DNA of 64,000 nucleotides from an uncultured bacterium (GCA_964607485.1 CAZSKP010000009.1:14045-78044); one strand, 5' to 3'. Counted from the first letter of the stretch, positions 14,963-36,713 are shown. Made by a program: numbers and translations. Notes: a model not told the origin generated them from the letters alone.

Positions 14963-16246
14963 TCACGCGTCGCCGGGCATCGGAAACCGGTCGCAGAGTT
15001 CCTGCACGCGTTCGCCGATTTTGGCGAGACGAGCTTCGTCGGAGCGCGCGTCCAGGGCCTCGTCGATGAGTTGCGCGATCAGAACCATCTCCTCCTCGCC
15101 CATGCCGCGCGTGGTGACCGCGGGAGTGCCCGGCCTGATGCCGCTGGTGACGGCGGGACTCTTCTTGTCGAACGGAATCGTGTTCTTGTTTACAGTTATG
15201 CCGGCGCGGTCGAGTATCTCGACCGCTTCCTGCCCGGTGACCCCCTTGTTGGTGAGGTCGATGAGCATCAGGTGCGTGTCGGTGCCGCCCGCGACCAGCC
15301 GGAAGCCGCGCTCGCCGAGCTCGGCGGCAAGTCGGGCGGCGTTGCGCGCGATCTTGCGCTGATAATCGGCGAACTCCTCGGTCATGGCCTCCTTCAGGCA
15401 GACTGCCTTGGCGGCGATGACATGCATGAGCGGGCCGCCCTGGATTCCGGGGAAAACCGTCTTATCGATTTTCTGCGCATATTTCTTCTTGCACAATACC
15501 ATGCCGCCGCGAGGCCCGCGCAGCGTCTTGTGCGTGGTCACCGCCACGAAATCGGAGTGCGGGAATGGACTGGGGTGCACGCCGCCCGCGATCAGCCCGG
15601 CGATGTGTGCGATGTCGGCCATCAGGTACGCGCCCACCTCGGAGGCGATCTTGGCAAACTCGGCGAAGTCGATCGTGCGCGGATAGGCGCTCGCGCCGAC
15701 GACGATCATCTTCGGCTTACAGGCGTGGGCCTGCTTCCTTATCGCGTCGAAATCGAGCGTCTCGGTCTTGGGATTCACGCCGTACGCGACGACTTTGAAG
15801 AGTTGGCCCGAGAAACTGGCGGGAGCGCCGTGCGTCAGGTGCCCGCCGTGCGACAGCTCCATGCCCATGATCACGTCGCCCGGCTTCAGGACGCTGAGAT
15901 ACACCGCCATGTTCGCCTGCGTGCCCGAGTGCGGCTGCACGTTCGCGTGTTCCGCCCCGAACAGTTTCTTAGCGCGCTCGATGGCAAGGTTTTCGACCAC
16001 GTCCACGTACTCGCAGCCGCCGTAATACCGATGTCCGGGATAGCCCTCGGCGTACTTGTTGGTCATCACGCAGCCCTGCGCCTCGAGCACGGCGGGGCTG
16101 GTGAAATTTTCGGACGGAATCAGTTGCAGCTTGCCGCGCTGCCGCTCATGCTCGCAGTCGATGGCGCGCGCGACGTCGGGATCCACCTTGGCCAGAACGC
16201 CCAGTTTTTCATCTACGGAACGGGAGTTTACAAATTTGGAACACAT
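14963..16246 (-). CDS. glyA: Serine hydroxymethyltransferase
   Basis: LIPSENF, PLP-site [16 protein letters not shown] at 16246 preferred over TTG 16270 (ORF track start), start uncertain. Confidence 0.95.
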
Positions 16247-16522
16247 TTTCCCCCCAAAATAGCTTGACAAGAACTGACAATTATGGTATTACTATCATGC
16301 AGGTCCGAGTCCGTCTTTAGGGGCGGGGGTAGGTCCTGCTTTTCATTTCCCGTAAAAAGGCCTGATAATCCCCTCGGAATCATGGCGCGTAGCCTCTGTC
16401 ACAAGAATCGGCGCCAACAAACCAAAAGCTTCATTCAGCCCATACCTTTTCCGAGAGTGCCTCGGACTTTCCATCAGCTTTCCTTCGTGATACAAGAATA
16501 AAAACTCTGACTCGGTCCAAGT

Positions 16523-17437
16523 CTATAGAGTCCTATCCGAGGGAAGACGTTTCAGCCTCTTTGGTTCTTCCGGAGAATACTTTAGCCTTCGGCGTCGCAC
16601 ATCGTCTATTCTCCATCCCATCATAAATATCTCATGACTCCCTATCTTATCGACTTTCTTGAGTTTTATCTCTTGGCCTGGGAAGAAGGCACCACAGCTC
16701 ACCTCCTGCGGGGAACAGGAGTTATCGTTTACGCAGACCACTAAGGAATTGGTCTTGCTCGAAAGGCGTAAGCAAGATCCAAGTGCTTGTGAGAATTTGT
16801 TTGTATAGCACGGAACTAGGATAACTTCAATGTCCGCCTTGTTCAAACTCGTAGAGTTCAATACCTCAAACTTATATTCAGCATTACGGTCGGCCACATC
16901 TAGGCAAATCAAGACGCTAATTACTCCAAATTCTGTGTTAATAAGTAGAAATTTCGGTTTGCCTTTTGGAACTTTACATTCTTCGCCGGCCACTTGGGCC
17001 AGATTATATTTGTATTGCTGAAATGGTCTATTCCTATATGGCGTGTATATCAGCGAAGTATTAAAGAAGGTTCTTGGATCATAATATGAACCGGCAACAA
17101 TATGTGACCCAAATCTGCCTGCAAAATTTGCCAACTTGCTTTCCAGTCCACGTGCTCCGTACGGATAAGATAGTTCGCTGAAACAAATAAGATTTGCTCC
17201 TTTTCTTGCCGCACTTTGTGCACATTGCAGAAAATTCTTCGAGAAGCTTTTTAGCTTTGTCTCTTTGAGAACGAAGATGGTGTCATCTCTATCTGCTTTG
17301 GAAACAAAACAATCCTCGGGAATATGCATTGACACTAATGCAATTTTTATCTCTGGACGACTGACGAACGAAAGAGTCTTTGTTAGAGATAGAGTGTCCT
17401 CCTGAATAGTGACATTTTCCTTGCTGGGATTCGACAA
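16523..17437 (-). CDS. Nitrilase-superfamily (carbon-nitrogen hydrolase-like) protein; island gene C
   Basis: 304 aa in low-GC DNA; candidate E-K-C triad context: GANLICFSELSYP (Glu), YKYNL (Lys), VISVLICLDVADRN (Cys). First in-frame start is TTG at 17437; start uncertain. Confidence 0.5.
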   Translation of the reverse strand: MSNPSKENVTIQEDTLSLTKTLSFVSRPEIKIALVSMHIPEDCFVSKADRDDTIFVLKETKLKSFSKNFLQCAQSAARKGANLICFSELSYPYGARGLESKLANFAGRFGSHIVAGSYYDPRTFFNTSLIYTPYRNRPFQQYKYNLAQVAGEECKVPKGKPKFLLINTEFGVISVLICLDVADRNAEYKFEVLNSTSLNKADIEVILVPCYTNKFSQALGSCLRLSSKTNSLVVCVNDNSCSPQEVSCGAFFPGQEIKLKKVDKIGSHEIFMMGWRIDDVRRRRLKYSPEEPKRLKRLPSDRTL

Positions 17438-17520
17438 GTGTAATGTCTCACCAATTAGGGGTGCAGGATCATTCTTGAAAATAGGCTGAGATGCTATTGA
17501 AAACGAATGGCAGAAGCCAG

Positions 17521-18012
17521 TTAACCAAATCTCTGGTGTATCAGCTTTGTTTTCGCCAAATTAGCAACCTGTTCTCTGGGCAGACAGATACGTGTTAAGA
17601 AAGTACAATAGTCCTGCTCCAATTCCTTGAGATTCTCAATTGTTCCTCTCAGAGTCTTATTATTTCCCAAAGAAATGTCCGCCCCCTTCTTTCTCTCATC
17701 CAGCCTGTAATCGGATATCAGACAAGGATATTCGAAGATCCATTCCGGTATTTCTTCTAAACTTAATACAAGTGGTCGAGGCAAACCTCTCCGAACACAC
17801 TGGTGATCGACCTGTTCGATTTGTTCGTTGCATAGGACTCGTTTTTCAGTGAAGGAAAAGTAAAAGTTCTTCAACTCCTTGTTTTCTTTTTCGAAGCGAA
17901 GCCGAACATTTACACTGTCCGAATATTCCCAAACACTTACCCGCCCACAGATTAATCCCATAAACGCGTCCTCTCCCATACCCAATGCTGTTCGTAACAT
18001 TTGACCGAGCAA
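17521..18012 (-). CDS. Hypothetical protein; island gene B
   Basis: 163 aa ORF in low-GC DNA, no motif recognised; starts 2 bp after gene A stop (TTG 18012 or ATG 18000). Confidence 0.4.
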   Translation of the reverse strand: MLGQMLRTALGMGEDAFMGLICGRVSVWEYSDSVNVRLRFEKENKELKNFYFSFTEKRVLCNEQIEQVDHQCVRRGLPRPLVLSLEEIPEWIFEYPCLISDYRLDERKKGADISLGNNKTLRGTIENLKELEQDYCTFLTRICLPREQVANLAKTKLIHQRFG

Positions 18013-18013
18013 C

Positions 18014-18901
18014 TCAGTTGTCCGAACCGATCATGCGTGCAAAAGCTTTACTCACTCTCGCAGGTCCCGCGTCTCTAACAGTCAAAGGAGGGGTCTGGCG
18101 CTGGTCATAACAGATGCCAACATGGCTGTCAAATGTGCCATTTCCATTCGTGCTTGACTCTAAAACTATCCCTTCTGTGTCTTCACCCGCCAGACCAGCC
18201 CATTCAGCGTTTGTTGCTTCAAGATATTCTTGAATTTCTGGCCAGCTTGAGCACCTCCAACCCTGCCAGAAAATCATTGTTTCTGCAACATTGCGCATCT
18301 CCTTATCTGTCTTAATCATTGCTCTGAAATCTATCTCCTCGCCAGCGAGCAAACTGCTCACGCATCCTGCAAATTCAGGATCCATCGAAGCAACAAATTT
18401 GAGACTGATCTTCTTTCCTTTAGAAACTTCCTCGTAAAATCCTTCCTCAACCAATATTTTCCGATAGCTATTATAAACAATATCATCAAGGCCGGAGATA
18501 TATTCGGAACAGGTTGAAAAGAAATTGTGAATCTCTTGTGCATCCAAATTTCCGTTTGAAGACTGGATCAGAGAACATCTGGACCATATTTTACTTTTGT
18601 TTGGTGGAACACAAATCGTAATGGATGGCCTGTACTCGAGCAGAAAACCATTGGACCTAAATTGGAGACCGCCGAAAACCAATCCAGGCCCTTCCCGCGA
18701 CTCATTCTCTGGTTCTAGACTCTTTTCATTCGTGATACGCGTCAAGCAATTCTTGATCTCTTTATGGAGAGATATCCATTTGCGGCTCATTGCATTCCTT
18801 ACTGCAGTAGCCTTCCCATATTCACTGCTGCAGAATCCACGCGGTTTCACAACCAAGCATGACCTGATCAAAGGGAATCTGTATTGCTTGTCAGCGTACA
18901 A
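18014..18901 (-). CDS. Hypothetical protein; island gene A
   Basis: 295 aa ORF in low-GC DNA, no motif recognised; first in-frame start TTG at 18901, possible later ATG (MSRKWISLH). Confidence 0.4.
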   Translation of the reverse strand: MYADKQYRFPLIRSCLVVKPRGFCSSEYGKATAVRNAMSRKWISLHKEIKNCLTRITNEKSLEPENESREGPGLVFGGLQFRSNGFLLEYRPSITICVPPNKSKIWSRCSLIQSSNGNLDAQEIHNFFSTCSEYISGLDDIVYNSYRKILVEEGFYEEVSKGKKISLKFVASMDPEFAGCVSSLLAGEEIDFRAMIKTDKEMRNVAETMIFWQGWRCSSWPEIQEYLEATNAEWAGLAGEDTEGIVLESSTNGNGTFDSHVGICYDQRQTPPLTVRDAGPARVSKAFARMIGSDN

Positions 18902-19102
18902 GATTACACCTGCCTTCCTCCGGTTGCACTTATCATGCTTGCTCTAACTTCTGTTTTCCTAAGCACATGGACACACTAATATTATATCCTATAACATAAA
19001 CTTTTTCAAGAAACTTCCCGCCCATGGGGGATAGATTCTGGTTCGGGCGCTGAAGCGTAAACTCGGCATTAGTGGGCGATTATTTTCTCTCACGAACAAT
19101 CT

Positions 19103-19131
19103 ACCATAACGCACGCTAACAAATTTGTCAA
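19103..19131 (-). promoter_or_regulatory. Possible sigma70-like promoter upstream of the island genes (TTGACA-17nt-TATGGT)
   Basis: Minus-strand reading gives TTGACA (19131-19126), 17-nt spacer, TATGGT (19108-19103); about 190 nt upstream of TTG 18901. Confidence 0.25.
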
Positions 19132-19221
19132 GTTGAATGCAATATTCTTCTTTCGTAGTTCCGCAACGAATGTCCAGGTTCCACGAAGGCCGAACGCGAA
19201 GCAGCATTAAGCATACCTTTA

Positions 19222-19656
19222 CTATTCTTCGCCGTCTATTTTGCGGATTCGCCTGAGGTGGCGTCCCCCCTCGAAGGGAGTTTCCATCCACACGCGGAGT
19301 ATGTCCCGGGCGGCGGCAAAATCGATGAGCCTCGAGCCGAGCACAAGCACGTTCGCGTCGTTGTGTGCTCTCGACATCTCTGCCATCCGGGTATTCATGC
19401 AGAGCGCGGCGCGGATGCCTTTGTACCTGTTGGCCGTGTAGCTCATCCCCAGTCCGGTGCCGCATATGAGCACCCCGCGCTCGCATGCATTTGCGAGTAT
19501 CGTCTCGCACAGTTTCTTGGCAAAATCGGGATAGTCGCAGGATTCGGTGCTATAGCAGCCGAAGTCTTCCACCTCATGCCCTTCGGATGCGAGATGCTCC
19601 TTGACCCTTTCTTTCAGCTCAAATCCAGCGTGGTCAGAAGCTACCGCCAACTTCAT
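19222..19656 (-). CDS. rpiB: Ribose-5-phosphate isomerase B
   Basis: Starts MKLAVASDHAGFELKE at internal ATG 19656; RpiB/LacAB fold motifs GVLICGTGLG. Confidence 0.85.
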   Translation of the reverse strand: MKLAVASDHAGFELKERVKEHLASEGHEVEDFGCYSTESCDYPDFAKKLCETILANACERGVLICGTGLGMSYTANRYKGIRAALCMNTRMAEMSRAHNDANVLVLGSRLIDFAAARDILRVWMETPFEGGRHLRRIRKIDGEE

Positions 19657-20323
19657 CTGGGTTCCCTTCCTGAGAATACAGTCTCCTGCCAAACTCGGCG
19701 ACCACGGCGCTCAGCCTGTCAGCCGGGACCGCACCCTCCCTTAATATTACTATTTTTCGACCGGTAACTTCCACTATCGTTGACGGCAGCTTGCAGGTGC
19801 TCGGCCCTCCATCGACAACCGCGTCGATTTCGCCCCTGAAGTACTCCATGGCTTCCTGCGCGCTCCGTGCAGGCCGGCCTCCAGAGGGGTTGGCGCTTGT
19901 GGCAACCAACAGCCCGCCCAGCGCGCCCGCGATGGCGCGGGCGATAGTGTTGTCGGGCATCCTGACGCAGATCATCCTGCGCGCGTCCAGCACATCGGTC
20001 GGAAGATTCCCGGAATCCTCGACCACGAGCGAGACCGGGCCGGGCCAGAATGTCTCGGCGATGGCCGCAGCGACGGGACTGAGCCTGATTCCCCACTCCG
20101 CCAGCCGCTCCGGCTTGTCGATGACGTAGGGAAATGGTTTTGCCCCCTCCCTGCCCTTGAGTATTCTGACCTTGTGGTTGGCGTCGGAGTTGAAGGCGTC
20201 GCCGCCGAGTCCGTAAAGCGTGTCGGTGGGGTAGGCAATCACGCCTCCCTTTTTCAGCAGCGAGGCGACCTCGTTCACCAGTTTAGGCTCGGGCGCTCTT
20301 GTGTTTAGTTCGAATACTTTCAT
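19634..20323 (-). CDS. tsaC: L-threonylcarbamoyladenylate synthase (TsaC/YrdC family)
   Basis: Starts MKVFELNTR at internal ATG 20323; YrdC motifs GGVIAYPTDTLYGLGGDA and LLVATSANPSG. Confidence 0.8.
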   Translation of the reverse strand: MKVFELNTRAPEPKLVNEVASLLKKGGVIAYPTDTLYGLGGDAFNSDANHKVRILKGREGAKPFPYVIDKPERLAEWGIRLSPVAAAIAETFWPGPVSLVVEDSGNLPTDVLDARRMICVRMPDNTIARAIAGALGGLLVATSANPSGGRPARSAQEAMEYFRGEIDAVVDGGPSTCKLPSTIVEVTGRKIVILREGAVPADRLSAVVAEFGRRLYSQEGNPDEVGGSF

Positions 20324-20927
20324 CCTTCTTCGAACGCTCGGCGAGCATTCGCTCCAGAATGCGGCGAGCCTTCCTGAGGGCTTGCGCGCGGTGGCTGATC
20401 TCGTTCTTTGTTTTCGTGCCCAACCGGGCAAAGGTCTTGTCGTACCCCTTGGGAATGAACACGGGATCATACCCGAAACCCGATTTCCCGAGCGGGCGCG
20501 AGGCGATCCTGCCCTCGCACTTTCCCGTGGCCATCCAGATTTTCTTTCCGTCGGTTATGGCCACCACGCACACAAAGCGCGCCGTTCGCTTTTCGGCCTT
20601 GACGCCCCGCATCAGGCGCAGCAGCTTCTTGACGTTATCCGCGTCCGTGGCATCGTCTCCGGCAAATCTGGCCGAATGGCAGCCGGGCTGTCCACCGAGA
20701 CGGTCAACCTGCAGGCCCGAATCCTCGGCAAGCGTGAGGAAACCGGTCTGACGAACATATGTCCTTGCCTTGATGCGCGCGTTTGCCGCGAACGAATTGC
20801 CGCTCTCGCGCGCGGGCTTGACATTCTTGATTTCCTTGAGACTGACTATCTCGACGGGGAGCCCGTCGAGAATCTTCGAGATTTCGCGGATTTTGCCCGT
20901 GTTGCCGGTTGCGAGGAGGAGCTTCAC
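20283..20927 (-). CDS. rdgB: Non-canonical purine NTP pyrophosphatase (RdgB/HAM1 family)
   Basis: 214 aa; [23 protein letters not shown] motifs; directly downstream of rph. Confidence 0.85.
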
Positions 20928-21659
20928 GACCCCGCGCTCCCGGCTTCGAGCGCGGCCGTCTGCGAGCGGACCAACCGTCGAATGCCATCCTGCGCGAGGT
21001 CGAGCAGCTCGTCGAGGAGCTTTCTCTCGAACGGGTCCTTTTCAGCGGTGGCCTGAATCTCGACAACCCTTCCTGCTTGCGTCATAATCACGTTGAGGTC
21101 CGCCTCCGCCCGCGAGTCTTCCTGATAGCACAGGTCGAGCATCGGAATCAACTATGCCCACGCTGGTGGCGGCCACGACTTCCCTGATGGGCATCGAGTC
21201 GATTCCGTTCGACTCGATGAGCCACGAGAGAGCGTCGTGCAGCGCGACGAACGAGCCGGTGATCGCGGCGGTTCGCGTGCCGCCGTCTGCCTGGAGGACA
21301 TCGCAATCCATCTGAATCGTCCGCGAGCCCAGGGCCGAAAGGTCCACCACGGAGCGCAACGTGCGTCCGATAAGCCTCTGAATCTCGAACGCGCGCCCCG
21401 ATGCGCCCCGGCCGATGCGGGTCTCGTTCGAGCGGGGGAGCATCGCATACTCGGCGGTTATCCATCCCTTGCCCGAACCCTCCAGAAAAGGCGGGACCCC
21501 TTCCCCGACGGAGGCGTTGCACAGGACCCGAGTATCGCCGATTTCAATCAGCACGGACCCTTCGGCGTACTTTGTGAATCCTCTCCGGATGACGACGGGC
21601 CGCATCTCGTTCCACCGTCGCCCGTCCGGCCTGAGAATGTGCGTGCGATCATCCGCCAC
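20924..21659 (-). pseudogene. rph: Ribonuclease PH, interrupted by a frameshift near 21143-21160
   Basis: ORF 21042-21659 carries the RNase PH N-terminal two-thirds ([48 protein letters not shown]) and runs into Arg/Gly junk after SVGIVD; ORF 20924-21151 in another frame carries the conserved C-terminus ([20 protein letters not shown]...VEIQATAE). Confidence 0.75.
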
Positions 21660-35739: not shown

Positions 35740-35887
35740 GAACGGCTCCTTTCATAGCGTTGCGCGAACAGTACCCAATGCAGCCATTATAGCATGTTTA
35801 TTGGAGAGCTTAAGAGTCCTCGCACCTAAATCGTAAGTCCAATATAGATAGTTAGTTATAGGGAAAAGTTGGCTGTGTCCCCATTTA

Positions 35888-36637
35888 TTATTCTTGGCCA
35901 CGTCTAGGCAAATCTTCCAGAGATAGAACGGGACACTTCCGCTTACCCAGATTGGCCAAAGTTTCTGCCAACTCTGTTGCCTCTAGATTCCTACCATGTA
36001 GTTCATAGAACCTGAGCAAGTCATTTCTGGCAGCAATAGAAGGCAGAGATACACACCCCTTCTCATTTGTGATGCGATCAGCAACCGAAATGCTCTTATG
36101 GTAACACGCCTCGGCACTTTCCAGGTCCCATAAGATCACGTACAAGTCGGCTGCCAATATATAACTCGAATAACTTAAGCGCCAATTTTCATATTCTTCG
36201 TAAATTTCTGCGGCCTCTACAAAAGCGTTCGCCGCATTCTTAAGTCGCAAATGGCCACAATCAGCAGCAATATGGCCCAACTTATTGTCTAGCTCGGCGC
36301 GTAGTTCTGGGGAATCGCTCTCACTTAGCCTGCTGATACTCCTTTCAAGCAAATCTATGGCATCATCATATCTGCCAAGTGAATATAGTTTGTCGGCCTC
36401 GGCGATAGTTTTCACCGAGAACTGTTCCAAACACTCTTGGCGAGCACTTCTCTCAAAGAATTCATCCGATTTCTCGCAAATTTCTTCGCCATACTCCTCC
36501 TGGCTATCATCAGCTGAGACTTTTGGCTGCCAGAAGACGCATACCAACACAGCTATCCAAAGAGCCCAAACCACGCCTCTTTTGGTTGATGTAGTTGATG
36601 GGGTCAAATCTTTAGCCTTGCATGTCGAGCTTATCAA
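35888..36637 (-). CDS. Secreted or membrane-anchored helical-repeat (TPR-like) protein, function unknown
   Basis: 249 aa in a lower-GC stretch; N-terminal hydrophobic segment VVWALWIAVLVCVFW then acidic, helix-rich repeats. Confidence 0.4.
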   Translation of the reverse strand: MISSTCKAKDLTPSTTSTKRGVVWALWIAVLVCVFWQPKVSADDSQEEYGEEICEKSDEFFERSARQECLEQFSVKTIAEADKLYSLGRYDDAIDLLERSISRLSESDSPELRAELDNKLGHIAADCGHLRLKNAANAFVEAAEIYEEYENWRLSYSSYILAADLYVILWDLESAEACYHKSISVADRITNEKGCVSLPSIAARNDLLRFYELHGRNLEATELAETLANLGKRKCPVLSLEDLPRRGQE

Positions 36638-36713
36638 CGAATTTTGGCTATCGCAGGTTAACCAATTCTAGCATGGGCACAAGGTGCTGTCAATCGCAGT
36701 AGCCGTGCCTCGT

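Follow-up and report, generated by a model that had tools for sequence, protein, structure and literature searches.

What is a compact, AT-rich operon of three genes doing between two housekeeping genes of an uncultured bacterium, and what might its products be for? The question is raised by a 64,000-nucleotide stretch of a metagenome-assembled genome (GCA_964607485.1, CAZSKP010000009.1:14045-78044; the window, with all positions counted from its first letter), in which an island carrying three genes, here called A, B and C, lies between rpiB and glyA. The cassette is a recent horizontal acquisition, an operon placed directly after the rpiB stop codon in a genome of the Abyssubacteria lineage, and its A-(B)-C arrangement is conserved across unrelated loci and metagenomes rather than being a one-off. 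As to what it does, we favor, at a probability of about 0.5, the reading that it is an undescribed conflict module, acting in phage defense or in a toxin-like manner, with a nitrilase as its putative effector and A and B as partners.

A recently acquired operon between rpiB and glyA

The island and its genes are as follows.

16260..19221, no strand assigned: inserted low-GC island of about 2.96 kb, between the rpiB stop codon and the retained GGGGG spacer before the glyA start
18014..18901, minus strand: gene A, 295 residues from a TTG start; open reading frame (ORF) of an undescribed family of about 300 residues, with an AGGTG/GGAGG Shine-Dalgarno-like sequence upstream
17521..18000, minus strand: gene B, about 159 residues; the ORF reaches TTG 18012, and an alternative start at ATG 17961 gives 146 residues
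16523..17437, minus strand: gene C, 304 residues from a TTG start; nitrilase superfamily (CN_hydrolase), with predicted catalytic Glu88, Lys143, Glu152 and Cys178 and a basic C-terminal tail

Base composition sets the island apart from its host. The windowed G+C content (GC) is 0.40-0.48 across positions of about 16200-19200, compared with 0.56-0.66 in both flanks, which makes this the deepest GC dip of the whole 64-kb window (overall GC 0.437 for the cassette versus 0.590). The contrast is sharper at third codon positions (GC3), where A, B and C have 0.42-0.45 as against 0.70-0.83 in the ten flanking genes, all that were tested. A synonymous-codon score trained on host genes likewise runs from -0.32 to -0.39 in the cassette and from +0.04 to +0.31, always positive, in the host genes. 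These values suggest a donor of lower GC for the window copy, and copies of the module elsewhere fit, lying in DNA of 31-52% GC with roughly the local composition.

An empty site gives the insertion its outline. The nearest relative by glyA, in a scan of one genome per species, is Candidatus Abyssobacteria SURF_17 (L002; 83% amino-acid identity), whose gene order of ctpA, rph, rdgB, tsaC, rpiB, glyA, dCMP deaminase and hslU is that of the window. Since rpiB and glyA lie only about 60 bp apart in SURF_17, with collinear flanks, the cassette is an insertion. By blastn, synteny with this genome runs from window position 21500 to 19223, ends exactly at the rpiB stop codon and restarts at 16195 inside glyA, and about 3.0 kb of the window corresponds to about 62 bp of SURF_17. 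The edges of the insert (about 16260-19221) were set by eye from the junction sequences of the window and SURF_17, and the empty-site comparison draws on this one related genome. A chimeric join is unlikely, because contig L001 of an independent Logan assembly (run SRR14802574) spans both junctions and matches window positions 16073-21135 at 100% identity. Matches of 9-12 nucleotides to 'CAAATTTG' at both island edges were judged to be chance, given their length and AT content.

Much of this had been anticipated by a preliminary description of the locus made from the window sequence. Its three minus-strand ORFs, with TTG as the first in-frame start in each (A 18014-18901, 295 residues; B 17521-18012, 163 residues; C 16523-17437, 304 residues), agree with the ORF listing, and the windowed GC, GC3 and codon-usage calculations bear out its claim that the cassette is richer in AT than its flanks. 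It had further proposed that the cassette interrupts a tsaC-rpiB-glyA run, by comparison with Bacillus subtilis. The flanking genes are confirmed and the rpiB-glyA junction is empty in SURF_17, so the idea of an insertion holds, while the relevant reference turns out to be the sister Abyssubacteria genome and not B. subtilis. Nor was a known metabolic operon found conserved at this position in relatives, the site in the sister genome being empty.

The cassette also appears to bring its own signals for expression, as judged from matches to consensus patterns.

18981..19009, minus strand: promoter-like site TTGAAA-17-TATAAT, in the island upstream of A; 11 of 12 consensus matches, pattern match only
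19103..19131, minus strand: second promoter-like site, TTGACA-17-TATGGT, in the island upstream of A; 10 of 12 consensus matches, pattern match only
16500..16523, minus strand: terminator-like hairpin (GACTTGGACCGAGTC) and T-run, overlapping the C stop codon; consensus scan, pattern match only

With these promoter-like and terminator-like sites of its own, the operon looks to be a self-contained transcription unit. A further reading, in which the 5' leader or 3' spacer would hold a structured RNA, was rejected: the two fold no better than shuffled sequences (z-scores of 0.32 and -0.77), and Rfam returned no match even at expectation values (E) up to 1.

Three protein families and their recurrence

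Of the three products, C is the one that can be placed in a known superfamily. It reaches 32.2 bits against the Pfam CN_hydrolase model PF00795 (E 9e-8), above the gathering cut-off of 23.2, with a match that spans residues 62-181 only, or model positions 14-152 of 256. Of the five C-family members, four are recognized by the same model at E up to 1, and precomputed Pfam annotation gives no CN_hydrolase for the C-type proteins of contigs L089, L092 and L095. Glu88, Lys143 and Cys178 are invariant over the five members, which share 16-37% identity (alignment A4), and a second glutamate, Glu152, is invariant among the three closer ones (alignment A6); the lysine and cysteine motifs align with those of pantetheinase and beta-alanine synthase. 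The glutamate-lysine-cysteine pattern picked out in the preliminary description thus proved well chosen, its motifs being the invariant positions predicted to be catalytic, and this triad is under strong constraint.

Placing C within the superfamily is harder. A profile of the family matches the structures of beta-alanine synthase (2vhh, E 3e-5), PH0642 (1j31) and Nit2 (2w1v), and its C-terminal half gives a faint match to the DRT1 structure 9yfd (E 0.11). Among defense models, window C scores 15.7 bits against RT_UG5-nitrilase of PADLOC (E 1e-3), a weak match that is no better than that to generic CN_hydrolase, and the best matches of the C family to the RT_UG5-nitrilase and RTasNitrilase models are also weak, at about 6e-7 to 1e-6. 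CARF_m7--CARF_nitrilase is matched by C at E 3.6e-5 over model positions 223-353 of 457, the nitrilase part only. Taken on sequence, C is almost certainly a divergent, active member of the nitrilase superfamily, with no branch assignable. The protein has an isoelectric point of 9.2 and no membrane segment. All full-length C-family proteins (window 16523-16610, and those of L089, L092 and L095) end in a strongly basic tail rich in arginine and lysine, which in the window reads ...DDVRRRRLKYSPEEPKRLKRLPSDRTL; such a tail recalls the C-terminal extensions that control oligomerization or the active-site lid in nitrilases and DRT1, or alternatively could bind nucleic acid.

For A, B and C alike, word-indexed searches gave self-matches only, and for A the impression of an orphan was overturned by an exhaustive phmmer/HMMER search of 1.84 billion representatives. 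This yielded 18 matches, 16 of them genuine distant homologues of 279-319 residues and 17-24% identity to A. The other two, P0005 (chemoreceptor-like, with an 11-fold HAMP_2 repeat) and P0008 (3,829 residues, repetitive), were rejected as relatives: their E of 1e-13 and 2e-8 is summed from 8-11 weak repeated matches to residues 64-131 of A. As its clusters hold one or two members each, the A family is very rare; a metagenome scan with the A alignment confirmed one locus, identical to one already retrieved. Five residues are invariant across the family (R13, C97, K104, W106 and Y146), and its core motif is [ST]xT[VI]CxPPNxSKIWxR (alignment A1).

The alignment also bears on where A begins. Public gene calls, by NCBI and Logan, start A at ATG 18790 and give it 258 residues. 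An N-terminal YxxPxxR motif of the family, which includes the invariant R13 and a near-invariant P10, falls within the 37 residues upstream of that ATG, and for this reason TTG 18901 is the true start and the public model is truncated. No match to A was found in Pfam, NCBIfam, PADLOC, PHROGs or the PDB, and a PDB profile search for the family gave nothing significant. Across 17 family members no Pfam or PADLOC model recurs consistently, one of the 17 matching PDC-M18A at E 0.024. That A might be a degenerate nitrilase paralogue of C was rejected at an hhalign probability of 1.3%.

Gene B diverges faster still, and its family emerges from position as much as from similarity. A co-oriented gene of 151-184 residues stands right after the A homologue in L082, L083, L086, L087, L092 and L095. 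In a leave-one-out hidden Markov model (HMM) test, five of the seven B-family members outscore all 300 shuffles; window B itself scores 15.6 bits, with a shuffle maximum of 7.9 over 300 shuffles. The invariants are C68, R75, E102 and C139, with a C-terminal CxPRxQ motif (alignment A5). By these measures the B-position genes, very divergent though they are, form a real family. B matches no known family in Pfam, NCBIfam, PADLOC or PHROGs, and a PDB search that included a profile gave nothing significant. A and B define two new and rare protein families outside Pfam, NCBIfam and PADLOC.

Two claims of the preliminary description were revised in part by these comparisons. Its verdict that A and B resemble nothing recognizable stands in that no known family matches them, and falls in that they are not unique, since both belong to rare families that recur with C-type nitrilases. 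The TTG start that it gave to each gene is upheld for A by the N-terminal motif; for B, ATG 18000 or 17961 is the more likely start over TTG 18012.

The recurrence itself was read from the neighborhoods of twelve A-family members including the window, of which eleven are informative, L091 ending at A. In seven of the eleven, A is followed within tens of bases on the same strand by a C homologue, and in five of those seven a B homologue lies in between. The arrangements are these.

A, then a B-size gene, then a C homologue: the window; L083/L084; L087 (C cut by the contig end); L092; L095/L096
A, then directly a C homologue: L089/L090; L093
A and B without a nitrilase: L082/L088; L086
A, then a PHP phosphoesterase: L094
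A without a B- or C-type partner: L085

Homology at the C position is strong for L083 (39.5% identity to window C over 205 residues, E about 3e-50), L092 (31% over 273 residues, 9e-32) and L089 (3e-17), and the C-position genes of L087, L093 and L095 join the family transitively. Across loci, similarity scores for A and for C co-vary (Spearman coefficient 0.88, ten non-independent pairs), a result one would predict for two genes that move as a unit.

At two of these loci further genes call for comment. In L094, a PHP-domain phosphoesterase of 222 residues (1311-1979) and an uncharacterized protein of 194 residues replace B and the nitrilase after the A homologue. This may be a case of effector swapping, parallel to the choice between nitrilase and phosphohydrolase seen in class 3 UG/Abi reverse transcriptases (RTs). 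In L089 (9173-9583) and L090 (200-610), which are independent contigs, a gene of 136 residues without known family precedes the A homologue by about 420 bp. Nothing comparable turned up ahead of A in the window or at the other loci, and no small upstream gene proved to be conserved.

A candidate conflict module and its rivals

Several lines of argument lead to the conflict-module reading. The module is rare, patchy, rapidly diverging and, in the window, of foreign composition; it appears to exchange its enzyme partner, nitrilase for PHP phosphoesterase; and at two loci it lies among defense-like genes. On the 60-kb contig L089, about 900 bp separate the A-C pair from a Type IIG restriction-modification enzyme (E 3e-292); the neighborhood also includes a Type II methylase, a DUF4062-NACHT protein, an HD protein, WD40 giants and a caspase-like peptidase. 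In L082/L088 a PD-(D/E)XK nuclease, a superfamily 1 helicase and a methylase follow the A-B pair and the winged-helix proteins that flank it. Precedent comes from DRT1 and DRT11, in which the nitrilase domain is the effector, its substrate being unknown (PMC13275509, PMC13436386), and from class 3 UG/Abi RTs, which bear either a nitrilase or a phosphohydrolase (PMC13275509). Nitrilase domains have been described as otherwise uncommon in defense (PMC13275509, PMC13436386), and the searchable literature holds no description of a stand-alone nitrilase defense or toxin-antitoxin system.

How might such a module work? C, as a predicted C-N hydrolase, would serve as the enzymatic effector. A, the most conserved and module-defining partner, would act in sensing or regulation, and B, which diverges rapidly and is sometimes absent, would be an adaptor or specificity subunit. 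Upon a trigger, the nitrilase would hydrolyze an essential metabolite bearing an amide or amine, by analogy with the nitrilase domains of DRT1 and UG5 and here without a reverse transcriptase. We infer complex formation among A, B and C, as well as what A and B do, what triggers the module, which substrate is hydrolyzed and that the module serves in defense. A more specific proposal, possible but doubtful as it stands, is that A-B-C constitutes a new, RT-independent abortive infection system against phages, in which the sensor A would control interchangeable effectors, mostly a stand-alone nitrilase and sometimes a PHP phosphoesterase, with B as a rapidly changing subunit that confers specificity or inhibits.

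A number of observations weigh against the conflict-module reading. Defense-like neighbors are visible in two loci with long flanks only, and the genes next to the module in the window, in L085 and in L091 are housekeeping or metabolic ones. None of the usual hallmarks of mobility is found at the island, where the preliminary description had already seen no integrase, transposase or tRNA: no such gene was found, the neighbors are syntenic housekeeping genes, and the repeats at its flanks are short, at chance level and unconvincing as an explanation of mobility. Scans of viral contigs, and tblastn searches of phage records and of plasmids, found neither A nor C. No specific model of PADLOC-DB v2.0.0 matches A, B or C, with zero matches for A and B and, for C, weak nitrilase-domain matches that fall below its Pfam match; by the same token no catalogued system lays claim to the cassette, and no known identity contradicts the earlier label of 'undescribed'. 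Single-sequence AlphaFold2 models of A and B are unusable, with predicted local distance difference test (pLDDT) scores of 34.6 and 37.6. The defense or toxin-type look that had been remarked on at the outset is accordingly favored here in conditional form, drawing as it does on two long contigs and the analogy with DRT nitrilases.

Of the alternatives, the one that survives best is a small acquired operon for catabolism or detoxification, which we regard as unlikely. C would then hydrolyze a small-molecule amide, nitrile or carbamoyl compound, and A and B would assist it as accessory subunits, as chaperones or by binding that substrate. Amidase operons are commonly acquired by horizontal transfer, the best matches of C are to metabolic enzymes (beta-alanine synthase, PH0642, Nit2 and pantetheinase), the generic Pfam model outscores the defense nitrilase models for C, and several loci have metabolic neighbors. 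The cassette, however, holds no transporter, regulator or additional pathway enzyme, and A and B, at 17-24% identity, evolve too fast for typical enzyme subunits. In L094 a PHP phosphoesterase stands where the nitrilase would be, and L082 lacks a nitrilase, which a fixed pathway hardly explains. Two loci have restriction-modification or nuclease neighbors, and the family is extremely rare.

A second alternative inverts the roles assigned by the conflict-module reading, and seems to us decidedly unlikely. In this toxin-antitoxin module in reverse, A, with or without B, would be toxic, and C an enzymatic antitoxin that removes or destroys the product of A, other antitoxins taking the place of C elsewhere. 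Antitoxins that work as enzymes are known, DarG among them, and A is indeed the constant element, with a partner that varies. In L082/L088, two paralogous winged-helix proteins (E 2e-23 to each other; L082 238-987 and 2876-3664) bracket the A-B pair. Each has its winged helix at the N-terminus, and they give weak matches to SocA/Panacea (E 0.024) and to the C-terminal region of the DarG antitoxin (E 9e-4); they may be an antitoxin-like partner that replaces the nitrilase; Panacea antitoxins, moreover, pair with many unrelated toxins (PMC8832971). These similarities, however, lie under curated thresholds, which is a weakness for the conflict-module reading as well; none of the invariant residues of A is acidic or a histidine, and no toxin fold is recognizable in it. 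Further, the A of L085 is apparently partnerless, which would be lethal if A were toxic, unless that copy is inactive.

That the cassette is non-functional, whether an assembly chimera or decaying junk DNA with ORFs no longer under selection, is very improbable and already largely refuted: its source is a metagenome-assembled genome, gene A is nearly without GC periodicity over codon positions (0.456/0.436/0.449) and no mobility genes are present, yet both junctions are reproduced exactly by an independent assembly, chance would very rarely leave three intact ORFs of such length in AT-rich DNA (about 3e-8 for a 295-codon open frame at about 44% GC, computed from base composition), the window copy preserves the triad and every residue that is invariant in the A, B and C families, and loci from unrelated samples repeat the gene order.

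Should the proposal of an RT-independent abortive infection system be borne out, the cassette would offer a minimal model for finding the substrate of nitrilase effectors in bacterial immunity. A stand-alone nitrilase with two small novel partners, free of a 1,200-residue fusion with a reverse transcriptase, would be a simpler system in which to study both the substrate of the nitrilase and its switching. The locus in addition illustrates cleanly how a candidate lineage of the deep subsurface has recently acquired genes, with an exact empty-site comparison.

Host flanks, and comparison with known systems

The host genes on either side, and one other part of the window, furnish some observations of their own.

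19222..19692, minus strand: rpiB, host gene of the left flank; Pfam LacAB_rpiB on the identical Logan gene, syntenic with SURF_17, its stop codon forming the island edge
14963..16246, minus strand: glyA, host gene of the right flank; likely start ATG 16246, 83% identity to SURF_17 glyA

Beside the junction, the N-terminus of glyA has an insertion of four residues (NSRS) relative to SURF_17; within window positions 16200-16270 the first glyA codons differ from the (M)RFVDEK of SURF_17, and the start region shows an apparent 12-nucleotide insertion or partial duplication of a TTTGTAGA motif. The 250-bp spacer past the cassette terminator yielded no clear sigma-70-like promoter that could serve glyA. 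A second low-GC islet lies at 35740-36713 (GC 0.45-0.47, compared with about 0.60-0.63 in its flanks), between a gene resembling aldehyde:ferredoxin oxidoreductase and a 2-oxoacid dehydrogenase E2 gene. Within it, one ORF of 249 residues runs on the minus strand (35888-36637, TTG start); its product has a hydrophobic segment at the N-terminus and weak matches of the TPR type. The islet has no sequence in common with the cassette.

Set against systems already described, the cassette shares features with several and coincides with none. Comparison with the metabolic enzymes of PF00795 (beta-ureidopropionase/beta-alanine synthase, the omega-amidase Nit2, PH0642 and pantetheinase) begins from real likeness, since C lies above the gathering threshold and has the Glu-Lys-Cys triad, with a second Glu in the closer members. 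It differs from them in that only the N-terminal 120 or so domain residues of C align, the C-terminal half and basic tail being specific to the family, and in the obligate linkage of C to A (and B), a partnership without parallel among the metabolic branches. CARF-nitrilase fusions (CARF_m7--CARF_nitrilase) are weakly similar to C in their nitrilase part, whereas C has no CARF domain by Pfam. No CRISPR-Cas family matches were found for A, B or C, the window itself not having been scanned for CRISPR arrays or cas genes.

The type II toxin-antitoxin pairs of PanA, which carries the Panacea domain, resemble the module in being compact and patchy with variable partners (PMC8832971), and weak Panacea-like or DarG-C-like neighbors do occur in L082/L088. 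Unlike these pairs, the window cassette has no Panacea-like gene, and it consists of three genes with an enzyme rather than of two genes forming a binder pair.

A further comparison is with the DRT systems. No reverse transcriptase was found by Pfam or PADLOC in the cassette or in homologous loci (A, B, C and 17 A-family members), and the cassette has no associated structured RNA; for these two reasons it is not a member of the DRT systems. C, moreover, is a separate protein of about 300 residues with two unrelated partners from novel families. Even so, the cassette has in common with the class 3 UG/Abi RT-nitrilase systems (DRT1/UG1, UG5 and DRT11) a probable nitrilase effector with an intact catalytic set, housed in a compact mobile module. 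As in that class, where the effector alternates between a nitrilase and an enzyme of the phosphohydrolase type (PMC13275509), the nitrilase position appears to be exchangeable, with L094 as the case in point.

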